A DNA stretch of 4,984 nt from a virus. Taxonomy: Duplodnaviria > Heunggongvirae > Uroviricota > Caudoviricetes. Below the pieces are notes generated by a model that saw nothing but the letters and a program-made list of their open reading frames with translations, was not told where the DNA came from and made no database searches. Positions 14 to 4,984 of the stretch are shown piece after piece. Both the position numbers and the translations under genes were made by a program. Position 1 is the first letter of the stretch. Each line of letters opens with the position of its first letter. Location: the IMG/VR virus record IMGVR_UViG_2619619126_000013, one strand, 5' to 3'.

Positions 14-38
14 AATAAAACGGGGCGCTCGGCCCCTT
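14..38 (-). terminator. Rho-independent terminator ending the tail-fibre operon
   Basis: Directly after the TAA stop (43-45) the minus strand reads GGGGC-CGAGC-GCCCC (5-bp all-GC stem, + coordinates 22-26 pairing with 32-36) followed by GTTTTATTGGG. The stem is short, hence moderate confidence. Confidence 0.5.
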
Positions 39-42
39 AATA

Positions 43-1083
43 TTATTTAGACGCAAGCGCCGCCTCAATTACAGATAATCTTTGTCTTAATTCTGCGTTT
101 TCTTCTTCCAGTGCTGTTATTCTGTCGTCTGACTCTCTGGCTACCTGAACAAGCAAGCCAGTAACACCAGAATAATCTACTGTGTAATAACGTTCACCTT
201 CTTCACCTTCCGATCCGCTCGCACCGTCCTGATATTTCATTGCGGAACCTACAACTTCTGGGATTGCTTCCAGAGCTTCCTGTGCAATGACACCAGCATA
301 GGGCATACCGTTTTCTTTAAGCGTGTATGTATAGCCGTTCATTTTACGGATGCGGTCGGTTGCATTATCGATCACCTGAATGTTGTCTTTCAGATCCCGG
401 TCGGAATGCTGGTTAAATGCGGTGGCATGACATGCACCATTAACGCTTAACATATAGGTGTTATCGGTATTTTTCTGCGCATAGAACATATAAGCGCCAC
501 CATCAACACCGACTTCATAAACAACAGGACGGCTGGAATTTCCCCATAATAACGTCGACACACCAGAATACGCCGTACCTTGCGTGTTTAGTGTCATGGT
601 CGACCCGTGATTAGCATATTTGATCTGCAATGAGTCTGTATTATCAAACTTAATAAGCGCGTTACTTCCCCGCACACCATACGACATGAGACAGTTCCCC
701 ATCTTAAGGTAACCATCACTGCCTGGAAAAATTAAAGTTCCTCCGTAAAGATCACTAAAGTCCCAAAAGATACCTTTTGTCCCGTTATGTGTGACGATCC
801 TCGTCATTGTATCTTTAGTACCATCAATATTTTTTCTGGTATATATGTCACTATAAGCGTTTTCCGTTTCACCAGTCTTATTTGACAAATGCAGCTTACC
901 GCTGAATATAGTTCCAGTTGTTGGCAATGTTTTTTGATCATAGATTACATTGCAATAACCATTCCATGTTGTTTTATTGTCTACATAAGATTTTGTTGCG
1001 TAGCTTCCTTGATCGTTTTTTAATTTGCTAACGTCGGATTTTAGCGTTTTGATGTCATCAGGAATTACTGTCGATGTAGCCAT
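43..1083 (-). CDS. Tail fibre / tailspike-like protein with C-terminal intramolecular chaperone (peptidase S74-type, autoproteolytic) domain
   Basis: The 346-aa ORF has a strong ribosome-binding site (GAGGAAGAAAA then ATG). Its C-terminal roughly 120 aa carry the hallmark of the self-cleaving chaperone domain found on endosialidase-type tailspikes and the T5 L-shaped fibre: HSDRDLKDNI ... GYTYTLKENG ... GVIAQEALEAIPEVV ... YYTVDYSGVTGLL, then a coiled-coil tail (ITALEEENAELRQRLSVIEAALASK). The N-terminal roughly 225 aa are Gly/Thr/Asn/Tyr-rich, as expected for a beta-rich fibre tip. Sample blocks 841-900 and 961-1020 are 22/60 and 19/60 G+C. Confidence 0.85.
   Translation of the reverse strand: MATSTVIPDDIKTLKSDVSKLKNDQGSYATKSYVDNKTTWNGYCNVIYDQKTLPTTGTIFSGKLHLSNKTGETENAYSDIYTRKNIDGTKDTMTRIVTHNGTKGIFWDFSDLYGGTLIFPGSDGYLKMGNCLMSYGVRGSNALIKFDNTDSLQIKYANHGSTMTLNTQGTAYSGVSTLLWGNSSRPVVYEVGVDGGAYMFYAQKNTDNTYMLSVNGACHATAFNQHSDRDLKDNIQVIDNATDRIRKMNGYTYTLKENGMPYAGVIAQEALEAIPEVVGSAMKYQDGASGSEGEEGERYYTVDYSGVTGLLVQVARESDDRITALEEENAELRQRLSVIEAALASK
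46..405 (-). other. Intramolecular chaperone / autoproteolysis domain of the 346-aa fibre protein (predicted cleavage at Ser227)
   Basis: The Ser codon of the SDRDLKDNI motif maps to + coordinates 403-405 (gga, reverse complement TCC), checked codon by codon down to K232 at 388-390. The domain runs to the C-terminus. Cleavage is inferred from family knowledge, not observed. Confidence 0.7.
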
Positions 1084-1092
1084 TTTTCTTCC

Positions 1093-1374
1093 TCACATCC
1101 AGCCACGAAGTTGATGCTCAACAGCAACCACGTATTCATCGAATAATGACGATATTTGCGAATCATTAATGATGCGCACGTTTACAAAATATCCGTCTTC
1201 CTTAACACATACCGGTTCGCCATCTTCAGTCAGTTCTCCGGTTTCTTTGTACACGTTACCTATCACGTCGATAAGAATATCATCCTGCATCGACTCGTCA
1301 TCATAATAGCCAATACTCTCCATAAAGGCCGAAAAGTCGGCCCTGTCTTCAAATTTGAGTGTTAAATCTTTCAT
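1093..1374 (-). CDS. Hypothetical small, highly acidic protein (93 aa), translationally coupled to stf; candidate fibre assembly or accessory factor, function unknown
   Basis: Its ATG overlaps the stf stop (TAATG at 1372-1376). A GGGGGAG Shine-Dalgarno lies about 8 nt upstream. By hand count it has about 22 Asp+Glu against about 6 Lys+Arg in 93 residues. Its stop TGA (1093-1095) overlaps the GAGGAAG ribosome-binding site of the next gene. I recognise no family; it is too short and too acidic to be a lambda-type Tfa. Confidence 0.7.
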   Translation of the reverse strand: MKDLTLKFEDRADFSAFMESIGYYDDESMQDDILIDVIGNVYKETGELTEDGEPVCVKEDGYFVNVRIINDSQISSLFDEYVVAVEHQLRGWM

Positions 1375-3587
1375 TAGATTGACTCCCCCACCTGAGCATC
1401 AGTCAATGCCTTGTGCCATATTCTGAAATTCCTGACATGACCAAATAAATGACGTAACCCGGCTGTAGTCTGGCCTCCAATACGGATAATTGCGGTGTTC
1501 TGAATACAGGACCATGTGGTTTTTGTTTCGCTGGATATATGCCCGTTACTTACTGAGCACGTAGACTGCTCTGACTTTACACGCATCCCCATAACCATTT
1601 TTTCAAGCGATGCGTTTTCGTTTACCCGTCTGTTAGCTCCTCCAATATCGCAATAAGGAAATCCGTCGTAATCTGTTGAACGACCGAAGCCAAGAATAAT
1701 AGCCGCTCCGGTTTGATGACCGCCGGTATCAAAAACACGTGGCGCTGCATTTGGCGTTTTATACCAGTTCTTATGTACCTCACAAAGAACCGTAAAAGGA
1801 AGATTATAAAGATTATTCTTAATTGGAACTGTAACTATATCGCTTGCGCGGGTCGCCGCCGTCGCTCCTGATATAATAAAAGATGATACACAAGGCCCAT
1901 CTTCTACTTGTGGGGTGGCCAGATAAATATAGTCACCAGATACGGTTGCCCCGCTCTGCTTAGGAGAATACTGTATCTGAGAGCCTATTTTTAACTCCCC
2001 ATCAATTGCCTGAATTGTTGCCTCTGCAAAAATCCATCCGGTAGCTTCGTCCTTTCTGACTCTCGCTGTAATCCTTGAGGCAGCACCGCCTGTCATATTA
2101 ATTTCAAGCGTTTGTGTATCAATATACGCATCACCAAGAAAAGTTGTTGCGCTACCGTCATATTTATCAAACCGGATACGCAACCTTACCTGCAGTTCTG
2201 TTTTAAAACGACATGAGGTTGTCACGTGTTTATTATCGCCTGAGACATCAACTGACTTTGTTGCAGCAATTGATGCCATATTAATGGCTGAGGTTTGCCC
2301 AATCAGAGAATCGTTGCAGACAAACTTTCCATAGGTAAAACCAAAATTATCCGTCCCTGTTTCGGGCACATCCATATTTGACGATCGCCCCCAACTGGCA
2401 GGGCTTTCCGAATTGAGCATGTAGTTTGTTCTTTGCCCCTCAATAAGCAGGCCATCACGTTCAAATCGTGGCTCGTCAATGGCAGCCTCTGTCAGCACAC
2501 CAGATTTGTTAATATAGGTTGCTTTCGATGCACGTTTAAACTTAACAATCTTGTCGCCAGGCATCGTTATTTCATCGTCACCAATAACAATTTTTTTATA
2601 TGACGGCGAAAAGCCCGTAATCATATCCAGCGAATCGTTAAATGGTATCCACACATCAGGCAGCGGCTGTAAGACATATTTATACGGCTCCGCAGCCTGG
2701 CTTGCGTACTCTCTGGCTGCATCTTCGCTTGCTTTAGCTGCCGTCTGGCTTGCTGCCGATGCTTTCGCTGAGTTCGCAGCCGCTGTTTCGCTCACCTTTG
2801 CGTTGGTTTCACTGGTTTTTGCTGCTTTTTGACTGTTAGCTGATGCAGTGGCAGAAGCAGCCGCCGCGCTTGCAGAACTGGCTGCGGCACTCTCGCTTTG
2901 AGCCGCTGCATCCTGACTGCTTTTCGCCGCAGTTTCACTGGCTTTGGCATTCGTTTCGCTGGTCTTCGCTGCCGTCTGGCTGGACTTTGCGTTAGTTTCA
3001 CTCGTCTTCGCAGCTTTCTGGCTGTTAGCCGCAGCAGTTGCTGATCCAGCTGCTGAAGTCGCAGAACCGGCTGCCGCGCTCTCGCTTTGGGCTGCTGCAA
3101 CCTGGCTGTTTTTTGCCGCAGTTTCACTGGCTTTAGCATTCGTTTCGCTGGTTTTCGCCGCGTTCTTCGATGATGCCGCTGCAGTTTCGGATTTCTTTGC
3201 CGCCGCTGCGCTCTGAGAGGCGGCTTCAGCGTTGCGTGCCGCTTCTTCCACCATTTCCTCAAAACGACGCAATGCCTCCGGCATGACATCATCTTCCGTC
3301 ATGGCACCGAGAAAATCATTCAGCGTACCTGGTCTGGAACCTTCATAGACGGTAATGGTCCCGGCATGTGAAGGCGGAAAACCTTCAACCAGCAGGGTGA
3401 CGCTGTACTGGCCATACTCAACATCCATGCTGTAACGCCCGGCTTCATCCGGATTTTCAGAGGCCACCGTGTTCACCAGTACCGTGGTGCTGTTACGCTT
3501 TGCCTTCAGTTGAATAGTGCAGTTCTGTATTGGTTTTCCCGCACCATCTTTCAGCACACCTGAGATTTTTACTGCTGCCATATCCAC
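1374..3587 (-). CDS. stf: Side tail fibre protein (Stf-like): conserved N-terminal tail-attachment domain, Ala/Ser-rich heptad shaft, and a divergent C-terminal receptor-binding region ending in a LamG/ConA-like lectin domain
   Basis: The 737-aa ORF opens with MDMAAVKISGVLKDGAGKPIQNCTIQLKAKRNSTT, which matches the N-terminus of lambda Stf as I recall it (MAVKISGVLKDG...). Residues about 113-299 are an uninterrupted Ala/Ser/Thr heptad array. The C-terminal roughly 140 aa carry LamG-like signatures (PFTVLCEVHKNW ... RVFDTGG ... IIRIGGQ ... LFGHVRNFRIWHKALTDAQV). The track start at 3587 is GTG; the ATG at 3579-3581 with GGAG 6 nt upstream is the more likely true start. The stop TAA overlaps the next ORF's start (TAATG). 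Confidence 0.88.
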   Translation of the reverse strand: MDMAAVKISGVLKDGAGKPIQNCTIQLKAKRNSTTVLVNTVASENPDEAGRYSMDVEYGQYSVTLLVEGFPPSHAGTITVYEGSRPGTLNDFLGAMTEDDVMPEALRRFEEMVEEAARNAEAASQSAAAAKKSETAAASSKNAAKTSETNAKASETAAKNSQVAAAQSESAAAGSATSAAGSATAAANSQKAAKTSETNAKSSQTAAKTSETNAKASETAAKSSQDAAAQSESAAASSASAAAASATASANSQKAAKTSETNAKVSETAAANSAKASAASQTAAKASEDAAREYASQAAEPYKYVLQPLPDVWIPFNDSLDMITGFSPSYKKIVIGDDEITMPGDKIVKFKRASKATYINKSGVLTEAAIDEPRFERDGLLIEGQRTNYMLNSESPASWGRSSNMDVPETGTDNFGFTYGKFVCNDSLIGQTSAINMASIAATKSVDVSGDNKHVTTSCRFKTELQVRLRIRFDKYDGSATTFLGDAYIDTQTLEINMTGGAASRITARVRKDEATGWIFAEATIQAIDGELKIGSQIQYSPKQSGATVSGDYIYLATPQVEDGPCVSSFIISGATAATRASDIVTVPIKNNLYNLPFTVLCEVHKNWYKTPNAAPRVFDTGGHQTGAAIILGFGRSTDYDGFPYCDIGGANRRVNENASLEKMVMGMRVKSEQSTCSVSNGHISSETKTTWSCIQNTAIIRIGGQTTAGLRHLFGHVRNFRIWHKALTDAQVGESI
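2691..3251 (-). repeat. In-frame heptad-encoding repeat array (21-nt period) within stf, containing a 189-bp higher-order tandem duplication
   Basis: The protein reads as about 27 consecutive 7-residue units without stutter (for example TSETNAK / ASETAAK / NSQVAAA / QSESAAA). At DNA level there are near-identical direct copies offset by 189 nt: tttgcgttggtttca at 2797-2811 against tttgcgttagtttca at 2986-3000, and cgcagtttcactggctttggcattcgtttcgctgg at about 2928-2962 against the same motif at about 3117-3151. At protein level NSQKAAKTSETNAK occurs at residues 188-201 and 251-264. Confidence 0.85.
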
Positions 3588-3645: not shown

Positions 3646-4245
3646 TCAGAATTTATAACCGACACCCACGATGAAACCGTCAGTGCGCCAGTCACCACTG
3701 CCGGAGCCTTCATAAGCAATATCAATGGCCACGGATTCGGTCGGGTTAAACTGCACGCCAGCTCCCCACGCCAGAGACGTGTTGCTGTGGCGACCGTCAT
3801 CACTTCCGGTCAGCACATCGTGCGTTTTCCCCTTATTGTCAGTTACGCGGAGATAATCCCCGGAAAAAGTCGACACACGGCTGTAAGCCATACCCGCCAT
3901 CGCATACGCGCTGAACCATTCATTCACGCGCACAGACGGCCCCACCATCACGCTGAACCAGCGGTTACGCACGGAATCTTCATGCCAGCGGGTATTGCTG
4001 TAACGGGTAAGCTGGCGATTCTTGTCTCCTGCATAGCTGAATGACGTCACCAGCCCCAGTGTGTCCGTAAACTCATAACGGTATTTCACGTTAATCCCGT
4101 TAAGATCATCGCTGCCGGGAACGTTCGTCGAGGCATGAAGATACCCCGCGCTCAGCGTGGACTGATGTTCAGATGCCCATGCAGGCGCACCGGATACGGA
4201 CAGACAGATGGCTGCGGACAAAATGGCTGCACAAACTTTACGCAT
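3646..4245 (-). CDS. lom: Lom outer membrane protein (Ail/Lom/OmpX/PagC family 8-stranded beta-barrel), a lysogenic-conversion moron
   Basis: The 199-aa product has an N-terminal signal peptide ([24 protein letters not shown], then SEHQ), alternating beta-strand character and a C-terminal aromatic end (GVGYKF) typical of outer-membrane barrels. It is near-identical, by recollection, to lambda Lom. A GAGAGG Shine-Dalgarno lies 6 nt upstream of the ATG, and the gene sits immediately downstream of J. Confidence 0.92.
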
Positions 4246-4312: not shown

Positions 4313-4984
4313 TCAGCTGATACTGATGCCTGCGGTGGCTTTCTTCATCACCACAACCAGCAAATCGCTGATACTTGCTGTGGGATACCAGTCATTTACC
4401 AGCCATGCTGACACCGAAAACTCCAGCGTCATGTGACCGTGACCGGCAGGCATATCAATAACGCCACTGTAAATCAGCGTATTATCCAGCGCGGTACGGT
4501 TATAAATTTCAGCACCGTTTTTCCGCACTATCAGACGGCATGAGGAGTAAATATCAGTATGCTCTCTCTCATGTTTAGCGCCGCTGAATGCCACCGCCGG
4601 AATAACAATCTGCCGGTCAAACGGCTGATCGTCATAAACCCTGACGGTAATGGTCCCTGATGGCCACCGCTCCGGTGCACGGGAGTCCCGGGGGAAAGCT
4701 TTGCCCACTGTTTTAACGAGATCGCCTTCAATCTGGTTGGCGGACAGTTTTCCCAGAACCCGACAGTTTTCGTTAATCGTGACGTTGTTGAGCGTCCCGG
4801 AGTTCGCATTCACGTTACCGCTGATATCGGCATTTTTCGCCGTCAGCCGCCCGTCCGGTGTCAGGGAAAATGCCGGAGGATTACCGCCGCTGGTAATGGT
4901 GGGGGCCGTCAGGCGCTTCAGGAACACGTCGTTCATGAATATCTGGTTGCCCTGCGCCACAAACATCGGCGTTTCATTCCCGTT
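4313..4984 (-). CDS. J: Host specificity / central tail fibre protein J, C-terminal part only (5' end of the gene lies beyond the window)
   Basis: The frame stays open from 4966 to the window edge (codons upstream of the listed Met read N-G-N-E-T-P with no stop), so the gene is truncated by the window. The stop is TGA at 4313-4315. It sits directly upstream of lom with a hairpin terminator between, as in the lambda J-lom arrangement. The sample block 4801-4860 is 35/60 G+C by hand count. The family call rests on synteny and my recollection of gpJ, not on a search. Confidence 0.85.

Follow-up and report, generated by a model that had tools for sequence, protein, structure and literature searches.

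The 4,984-nucleotide stretch of Caudoviricetes DNA held as IMG/VR record IMGVR_UViG_2619619126_000013 (hereafter the window) raises the question of how a short fiber protein that ends in a self-cleaving chaperone domain, and that has no evident domain for docking to the virion, would be carried by its phage. The protein in question is the 346-amino acid (aa) product of an open reading frame (ORF) at positions 43–1083 of the minus strand (stop codon at 43–45 included). The answer we favor, to which we assign a probability of roughly 70%, is that this protein serves as an optional distal subunit in a side (lateral) tail-fiber cassette of three genes, the other two of which encode a large Stf-like fiber of 737 aa (1374–3587, minus strand) and an acidic protein of 93 aa (1093–1374, minus strand).

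The sequence-only reading of this DNA had assigned an intramolecular chaperone to the C-terminus of the 346-aa protein, and this assignment holds: Pfam family PF13884 (Peptidase_S74, S74 in what follows) matches residues 227–278 with E = 6.3e-14 and 52.4 bits against a cutoff of 22, and S227, D228, D230, L231, and K232 are invariant among 27 homologues that range down to 36% identity, with the Ser-x4-Lys pair standing at the start of the domain (Ser227 codon at 403–405 and Lys232 codon at 388–390, minus strand). In addition, the family profile matches the chaperone-bearing C-terminus of phage S16 gp37 (6f45, E = 1.3e-7), and AlphaFold2 places a long C-terminal helix at residues 304–345, with pLDDT (predicted local distance difference test) scores of 82–89. 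We note that the AlphaFold2 monomer model as a whole is poor (27-sequence alignment, pLDDT 58, predicted template modeling score (pTM) 0.30), and that it was used for local secondary structure only. The chaperone and the long helix together occupy residues 227–346 (46–405, minus strand). Since the scissile bond precedes the nucleophilic Ser in endoNF and T5 pb1, the mature chain would be residues 1–226, and cleavage before Ser227, as the earlier reading had it, is still what the position of the S74 domain and the invariant Ser227 and Lys232 predict.

Searching residues 1–226 against Pfam returned no domain, and to that extent the earlier statement that the protein has no tail-anchoring domain stands; it needs amending in that an N-terminal tag of about 15 residues and a coiled coil are conserved. 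The tag, residues 1–15 MATSTVIPDDIKTLK (1039–1083, minus strand), was delimited by alignment and has the consensus M-x-T-x-T-x-I-P-x-D-I-x-x-L-K, which in full-length relatives reads M-[AV]-T-x-T-[VI]-I-P-x-D-I-x-x-L-K, and nine diverse N-termini all have T5, I7, P8, D10, I11, L14, and K15. A short coiled-coil stalk at residues 9–30 (994–1059, minus strand) is marked by an I11/L14/V18/L21 heptad pattern and by AlphaFold2 helices at 9–16 and 18–24, and the alignment of full-length relatives shows that these insert extra coiled-coil repeats, in variable number, after the tag. There follow an exchangeable beta-rich domain at residues 31–110 (754–993, minus strand), with two allele classes and AlphaFold2 strands of pLDDT 74–81, and a beta-rich shaft and tip at residues 111–226 (406–753, minus strand), ahead of the cleavage site. 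Profile positions 160–236 match the T4 gp34 fiber shaft (4uxe/5nxf, E = 9e-8 and ~1e-7), beta strands are modeled within residues 151–214, and T4 gp34 is also the best Foldseek match in the PDB (E = 0.017, obtained with the low-confidence model).

Conservation among 26 unique orthologues is highest at residues 1–30 and 227–346 and lowest at residues 31–110, where divergence is saturated directly beside identical flanks, which indicates recombinational exchange and thus a mosaic protein. PHROG families of 1200–1570-aa fibers share only the C-terminal half of the protein (residues 87–341), and the tip plus chaperone would therefore be a mobile module that is also used in single-chain fibers.

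The tag itself is carried by lambdoid prophages and by phages of the Queuovirinae, Drexlerviridae, Dhillonvirus, and T5-like groups, and it heads third-gene products with unrelated bodies, of 245 aa in tunus (Drexlerviridae), 98 aa in KarlBarth (Dhillonvirus), 388 aa in VogelGryff (Seuratvirus), and 580 and 574 aa in the T5-like phages SIA3lw and IrisVonRoten, respectively. At 80 viral loci retrieved via the 93-aa protein, the slot after the 93-aa gene holds one of two alleles, either the 346-aa protein or one of 227–241 aa (mostly 234 aa), which resembles the 346-aa protein over residues 1–31 only and carries a separate S74 domain at residues 116–172. On these alignments, the 346-aa protein is a fiber without a globular anchor but with a conserved tag of ~15 residues and a short coiled coil, which are kept while the body is swapped. 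A tagged ORF starts ≤40 nucleotides past the end of the 93-aa-family gene in 77 of 77 further viral loci found by the tag pattern, but as these are close relatives of the window, the count is no independent test.

Several further observations concern this third slot. The 234-aa allele sits in the equivalent position at three of the loci compared (L033:6292-6996, L171:1873-2577, and L172:3792-4496), and its predicted mature chain would be only ~115 residues long and mostly coiled coil. The slot is empty in phage 21-type prophages. In KarlBarth, the tagged 98-aa protein has no chaperone, and its gene overlaps the next one, which encodes a 196-aa “tail fiber protein” that has no S74 domain either (gp30/gp31, L085:5065-5944), and this pair may be a split or frameshifted distal fiber of another type.

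The three-gene order is kept at ~40% identity in the virulent Nonagvirus JenP2, whose gp25 (348 aa) lies in the equivalent position, begins with the tag, and is ~41% identical to the 346-aa protein, as well as in tunus, KarlBarth, SIA3lw, IrisVonRoten, and VogelGryff. PhiR11_1, too, has the gene, at 89% identity. In every locus examined, spanning eight lineages and including phages without the small fiber, the gene for the Stf C-terminal domain is directly followed by the gene for the ~92-aa protein. Classical phage 21, Lambda_2G7a-type phages, and a second Escherichia ruysiae prophage have this pair without a tagged fiber. The same holds for an rV5-like phage, which has the C-terminal domain and the small protein, and in which a search across 49 kb of the structural region found no tag. 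The pair does not need the small fiber, and the small fiber never occurs without the pair. The large fibers of tag-bearing phages share only the C-terminal domain, their N-termini being either T5 pb1-like or lambda Stf-like, and since these fibers and the tails differ outside that domain, co-occurrence suggests that the tag must dock on the C-terminal domain, on the 93-aa protein, or on both. By the same token, because its gene always follows those for the Stf C-terminal domain and the 93-aa protein across differing tails, the 346-aa protein would ride on the structure encoded beside it, probably as an optional and exchangeable distal subunit.

Taking these observations together, we propose the following mechanism, all steps of which are inferred, save that the SIA3lw homologue has been detected in virions. 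Three 346-aa chains would trimerize, nucleated by the C-terminal S74 intramolecular chaperone, after which the Ser227/Lys232 pair would cut between His226 and Ser227 and free the chaperone. [quoted passage not shown] Each side fiber would in this way carry two binding modules, a lectin-like domain and a tip, beside the central J fiber, and the count of three receptor-binding modules (J, the Stf C-terminal domain, and the 346-aa protein) put forward in the sequence-only reading is a reasonable one.

The closest described counterpart is the fiber of phage IrisVonRoten (Bas32), for which an AlphaFold-Multimer model has Gp24 as a T-shaped distal fiber with an intramolecular chaperone, placed on the proximal fiber Gp22, the C-terminus of which forms a protruding “galectin-like” domain that was proposed to be an additional receptor-binding domain (PMC11990801). 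We find the same three-gene cassette in both cases: Gp22 is 52% identical to Stf residues 114–737, a span that includes the lectin-like domain, the 93-aa protein and Gp23 share 39% identity, and Gp24 opens with the tag described above (MVTKTVIPTDITKLK) and has an intramolecular chaperone at its end. The two differ in that Gp24 has 574 aa and two receptor-binding domains (Gp12-like and T5-like), compared to 346 aa and an unrelated body here, with BLASTP of the 346-aa protein against Gp24 giving no alignment at E ≤ 1e-3, such that only the tag matches, and in that the proximal fiber of IrisVonRoten docks by a T5 pb1-type rather than a lambda Stf-type N-terminus. Neither the tag nor the small protein is discussed in that paper (PMC11990801). 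Mass spectrometry of purified SIA3lw virions detected both ORF42, the large fiber, and ORF44, the tagged S74 protein (PMC12752171), and it has been noted that the lateral fibers of small siphoviruses can comprise two or more proteins (BASEL-1, PMC8594841). The suggestion that the 346-aa protein attaches to Stf or to the 93-aa protein, made from the window alone, hence finds support both in comparative genomics and in the literature on IrisVonRoten, with the contact as such remaining a prediction.

The Stf protein of the window consists of a tail-docking domain and an Ala-rich repeat shaft (residues 1–300; 2688–3587, minus strand), with phage_tail_N (PF08400) matching residues 5–134 (E = 6.5e-67), and a lectin-like C-terminal domain (residues 301–737; 1377–2687, minus strand), composed of a conserved neck (306–380), a variable body (~390–700), and a conserved C-terminus. 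Pfam found no S74 match in Stf. An alignment of 68 unique orthologues shows conservation over the N-terminal 380 residues, variability at residues ~390–700, and conservation again over the last 37 residues, a profile that reads as the pattern of a diversifying binding domain. Residues 350–597 (1797–2540 in the window) are homologous to the RcGTA (Rhodobacter gene transfer agent) head spike fiber Rcc01080 (6tb9, phmmer E = 1e-7), a likeness that concerns Stf rather than the 346-aa protein and that comes from a capsid spike context, and the extreme C-terminus has a below-threshold match to Laminin_G_3 (E = 0.0015–0.006). The C-terminal module spans ~430 aa and was found in 230 phage records, which comprise lambdoid, Drexlerviridae, Dhillonvirus, Queuovirinae, T5-like, and rV5-like phages, and it also weakly matches RcapMu and cyanophages.

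Residues 306–358 of Stf (53 residues, 2514–2672 in the window) are 100% identical to JenP2 gp23, with 85% identity at the DNA level, ~20 synonymous changes, and 0 non-synonymous changes. Outside this stretch, the two proteins share ~40% identity. The neck formed here, where the coiled coil meets the globular domain, is under extreme constraint, and an rV5-like fiber has a deletion in it. We considered this patch as a docking site for the small fiber and rejected it as specific evidence, as it is equally conserved in phage 21-type phages that do not have a small fiber. Upstream of it, the Ala-rich SETNAK/SQxAA shaft stems from a 189-nucleotide tandem repeat at 2796–3158 (1.9 copies, 82% matches), and long ORFs in other frames (e.g., 2792–3292 on the minus strand and 2551–2832 on the plus strand) are artifacts of this repeat. 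Stf has 737 aa here and 790–803 aa in most relatives, and the length of the repeat region therefore appears to be variable.

The 93-aa protein belongs to PHROG 1361, which is labeled as being of unknown function in that database. Homologues of ~92 aa occur in 198 phage records, and the protein is 39–54% identical to those of IrisVonRoten, VogelGryff, phage 21, and JenP2; the rV5-like homologue, at 110 aa, carries an insertion. The family is small, with 328 clusters at 90% identity among 5.8 billion, and nearly all of its members come from phages of Escherichia and Salmonella or from Escherichia prophages, with species-representative genomes containing it only in Escherichia (four loci, all of Escherichia type). 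We note that the 93-aa sequence alone as query recovers only relatives of ≥84% identity, and that a profile query is required for the more diverse members. Its AlphaFold2 model is confident (pLDDT 85, pTM 0.73) and shows an alpha/beta sandwich, and the protein is a candidate for an assembly factor or a socket of the distal fiber.

Several points weigh against a distal subunit carried on Stf. That the tag contacts Stf or the 93-aa protein is deduced from gene co-occurrence, the monomer model being poor (pLDDT 58); the most conserved patch of Stf, residues 306–358, is just as conserved where there is no small fiber, and so singles out no docking site; the structural search with the 93-aa model returned no informative neighbor; and the virion proteomics of SIA3lw omit the 91-aa protein and leave the processing of ORF44 unsettled (PMC12752171). 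As the partnership with Stf rests on co-occurrence, and as some siphophage tail-tip proteins are distantly related, making a common docking site on the tail conceivable, the 346-aa protein might instead be a second side fiber in its own right, docked directly on the tail tip or baseplate (the J, K, or L region). We consider this unlikely, since the tag spans T5-like, lambda-like, T1-like, Dhillonvirus, and 9g-like phages, whose fiber-attachment structures differ, since the tagged gene never occurs without the C-terminal domain and 93-aa pair immediately upstream, and since no density for a second, independently attached fiber was reported in the analogous T5-like case (PMC10713586). The paper on phage 9g, for its part, names the third gene a fiber “chaperone” and describes a side fiber “with the cognate chaperone” (PMC4276943), and GenBank has “putative lateral tail fiber chaperone” for the BASEL phages PeterMerian and VogelGryff. 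If these labels were taken literally, the 346-aa protein would be a trans-acting assembly chaperone of Stf and no stable component of the virion, a view with which the Pfam family name (“Chaperone of endosialidase”) and the short alleles of 234–245 aa, which leave only ~115 mature residues, would agree. S74 domains, however, work in cis on the upstream polypeptide, as in endoNF and T5 pb1. Phage 21, Lambda_2G7a-type, and rV5-like phages moreover make the Stf C-terminal domain without this gene, the SIA3lw homologue is present in virions, and the mature part of the protein combines homology to the T4 gp34 shaft with an exchangeable mosaic domain typical of receptor-binding proteins. We thus regard a role in trans as improbable, and consider the “chaperone” label of the third gene to be a misreading of the Pfam name.

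Within the preferred reading, in which the 346-aa protein is carried on the side fiber, it is possible, if less likely than its converse, that the socket is not the Stf C-terminal domain but the 93-aa protein, which would then be a virion adaptor that captures the tag. In every lineage its gene lies exactly between the two fiber genes, to both of which it is translationally coupled, its small alpha/beta sandwich is confidently modeled, and IrisVonRoten Gp23 is annotated as “tail fiber protein”. Against this, the protein is not among the SIA3lw virion bands, albeit small proteins may have been missed, and the family is equally present and conserved in phages without a tagged fiber (phage 21 and rV5-like phages), which ties its primary role to the Stf C-terminal domain. 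A bolder version, which we put forward only tentatively, is that a universal plug and socket, not described before, is formed by the tag and the ~92-aa alpha/beta protein, with the latter as a virion adaptor, and is common to six or more coliphage lineages, temperate as well as virulent; if true, it would clip any tagged distal fiber (from 98 to 580 aa) onto a lectin-tipped proximal fiber. Finally, shortened copies of the gene exist in databases (254-aa, 207-aa, and insertion sequence (IS)-interrupted), as would be expected if the ORF were a decaying remnant or an unexpressed cargo gene without a role in the virion, and the sequence-only reading had likewise entertained the remnant of a split fiber gene. 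The data speak strongly against either, and we judge such decay to be highly improbable: the frame is intact over 346 aa from an ATG start and is matched end to end by PHROG 4563 “tail fiber protein” (E = 7e-209), the family has thousands of database members, the catalytic residues are conserved, and the ratio of non-synonymous to synonymous substitution rates (dN/dS) is 0.10–0.26 against four orthologues, such that the gene is under purifying selection. It has a strong Shine–Dalgarno sequence of its own, GAGGAAG (1088–1094, minus strand, read from the sequence), which overlaps the TGA stop of the 93-aa ORF, and, just past its stop, an intrinsic-terminator-like hairpin GGGGCCGAGCGCCCC followed by a T-run GTTTTATT (22–36, minus strand; four terminator-like sites were found in positions 1–1500, compared to 0.8 expected). 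The same arrangement as a separate gene is found across phage families, including virulent phages. The Stf stop codon also overlaps the ATG of the 93-aa ORF (TAATG), and together with the Shine–Dalgarno sequence over the 93-aa stop, this makes the three genes look translationally chained; the 93-aa and 346-aa ORFs share one reading frame (43–1374).

Comparison to better-characterized fibers places the cassette among known architectures. DT57C LtfA/LtfB is a genetically proven branched lateral fiber (PMC4728585), and in LtfA/LtfB of the T5-like phages DT57C and DT571/2, as in phiEco32 gp14/gp15, a second fiber rides on the first and adds a second specificity (PMC4728585, PMC10713586), as proposed here. 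As in the 346-aa protein, the N-terminal anchor of the LtfB-type second fiber is short (~45 aa), and an S74 chaperone forms its C-terminus. However, the C-terminus of LtfA is an intramolecular chaperone and that of Stf a lectin-like domain, and there is no 92-aa gene between ltfA and ltfB. We also considered the tag as a homologue of the DT57C LtfB/phiEco32 gp15 anchor, and discarded this option because the comparison with phiEco32 gp14 and gp15 gave nothing significant (best E = 2.6). With the S74 fibers K1F endosialidase, T5 pb1, and S16 gp37, the 346-aa protein has in common the S74 match, the Ser-x4-Lys pair, the C-terminal helix, and a location of the domain at the very C-terminus after a beta-rich, putatively trimeric region, but its predicted mature part is much shorter (226 aa), with only the 15-residue tag and without a virion-docking domain of its own. 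As for lambda itself, the genomic slot (J-lom-stf) and the Stf N-terminal docking domain (PF08400) are the same, but the tip of Stf is lectin-like here rather than gp37-like, and the 93-aa protein and the chaperone-bearing small fiber stand in place of Tfa. No Tfa-like ORF was found in the window, and one relative has a Tfa pseudogene fragment further downstream.

The cassette is in this respect a common and partly described coliphage arrangement, and an ordinary member of a widespread fiber architecture rather than a new kind of system. We did not find the tag rule and the obligate 92-aa partner stated in the literature cited here, and these are useful details. The gene appears as one allele of an exchangeable distal-fiber slot, which recurs in Escherichia coli prophages and in virulent coliphage families used for therapy and biocontrol. 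The tag and the strict linkage of the gene pair provide a consistent annotation rule for genes now called “hypothetical”, “chaperone”, or “tail fiber domain”, and tag linkage predicts which phages would have two glycan- or receptor-binding modules per side fiber. The tag also suggests a compact handle for swapping distal fibers among unrelated phages.

Taken as a whole, the window comes from a lambdoid prophage of E. coli and covers the distal end of its tail-gene block, with all genes on the minus strand, and besides the cassette it encodes the C-terminus of J (4313–4966, minus strand, with an Ig_GpJ_C match) and Lom (3646–4245, minus strand). The entire window is found again at 94–97% identity in 196 complete E. 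coli genomes, with the labels “prophage tail fiber N-terminal domain-containing protein”, “hypothetical protein”, and “tail fiber domain-containing protein”. Just past window position 1, relatives encode a protein of ~97 aa with two transmembrane helices (MDITPFLHALCAV...; L001:7707-8000, L033:7007-7300, and L091:4292-4585), which always lies downstream of the cassette, regardless of the allele in the third slot. A Pfam search with this protein gave no match, and it could be an exclusion or lysogenic-conversion gene. In prophage relatives and phage 21, genes for the sitABCD iron/manganese transporter directly adjoin the fiber cassette on the opposite strand (L001:3906-7355 and L091:4677-8126). 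Finally, a 2.8 kb contig (L171, JAGZNZ010000051.1) binned into a “Collinsella sp.” metagenome-assembled genome carries the Escherichia prophage cassette at 91% identity, and is very likely misbinned.

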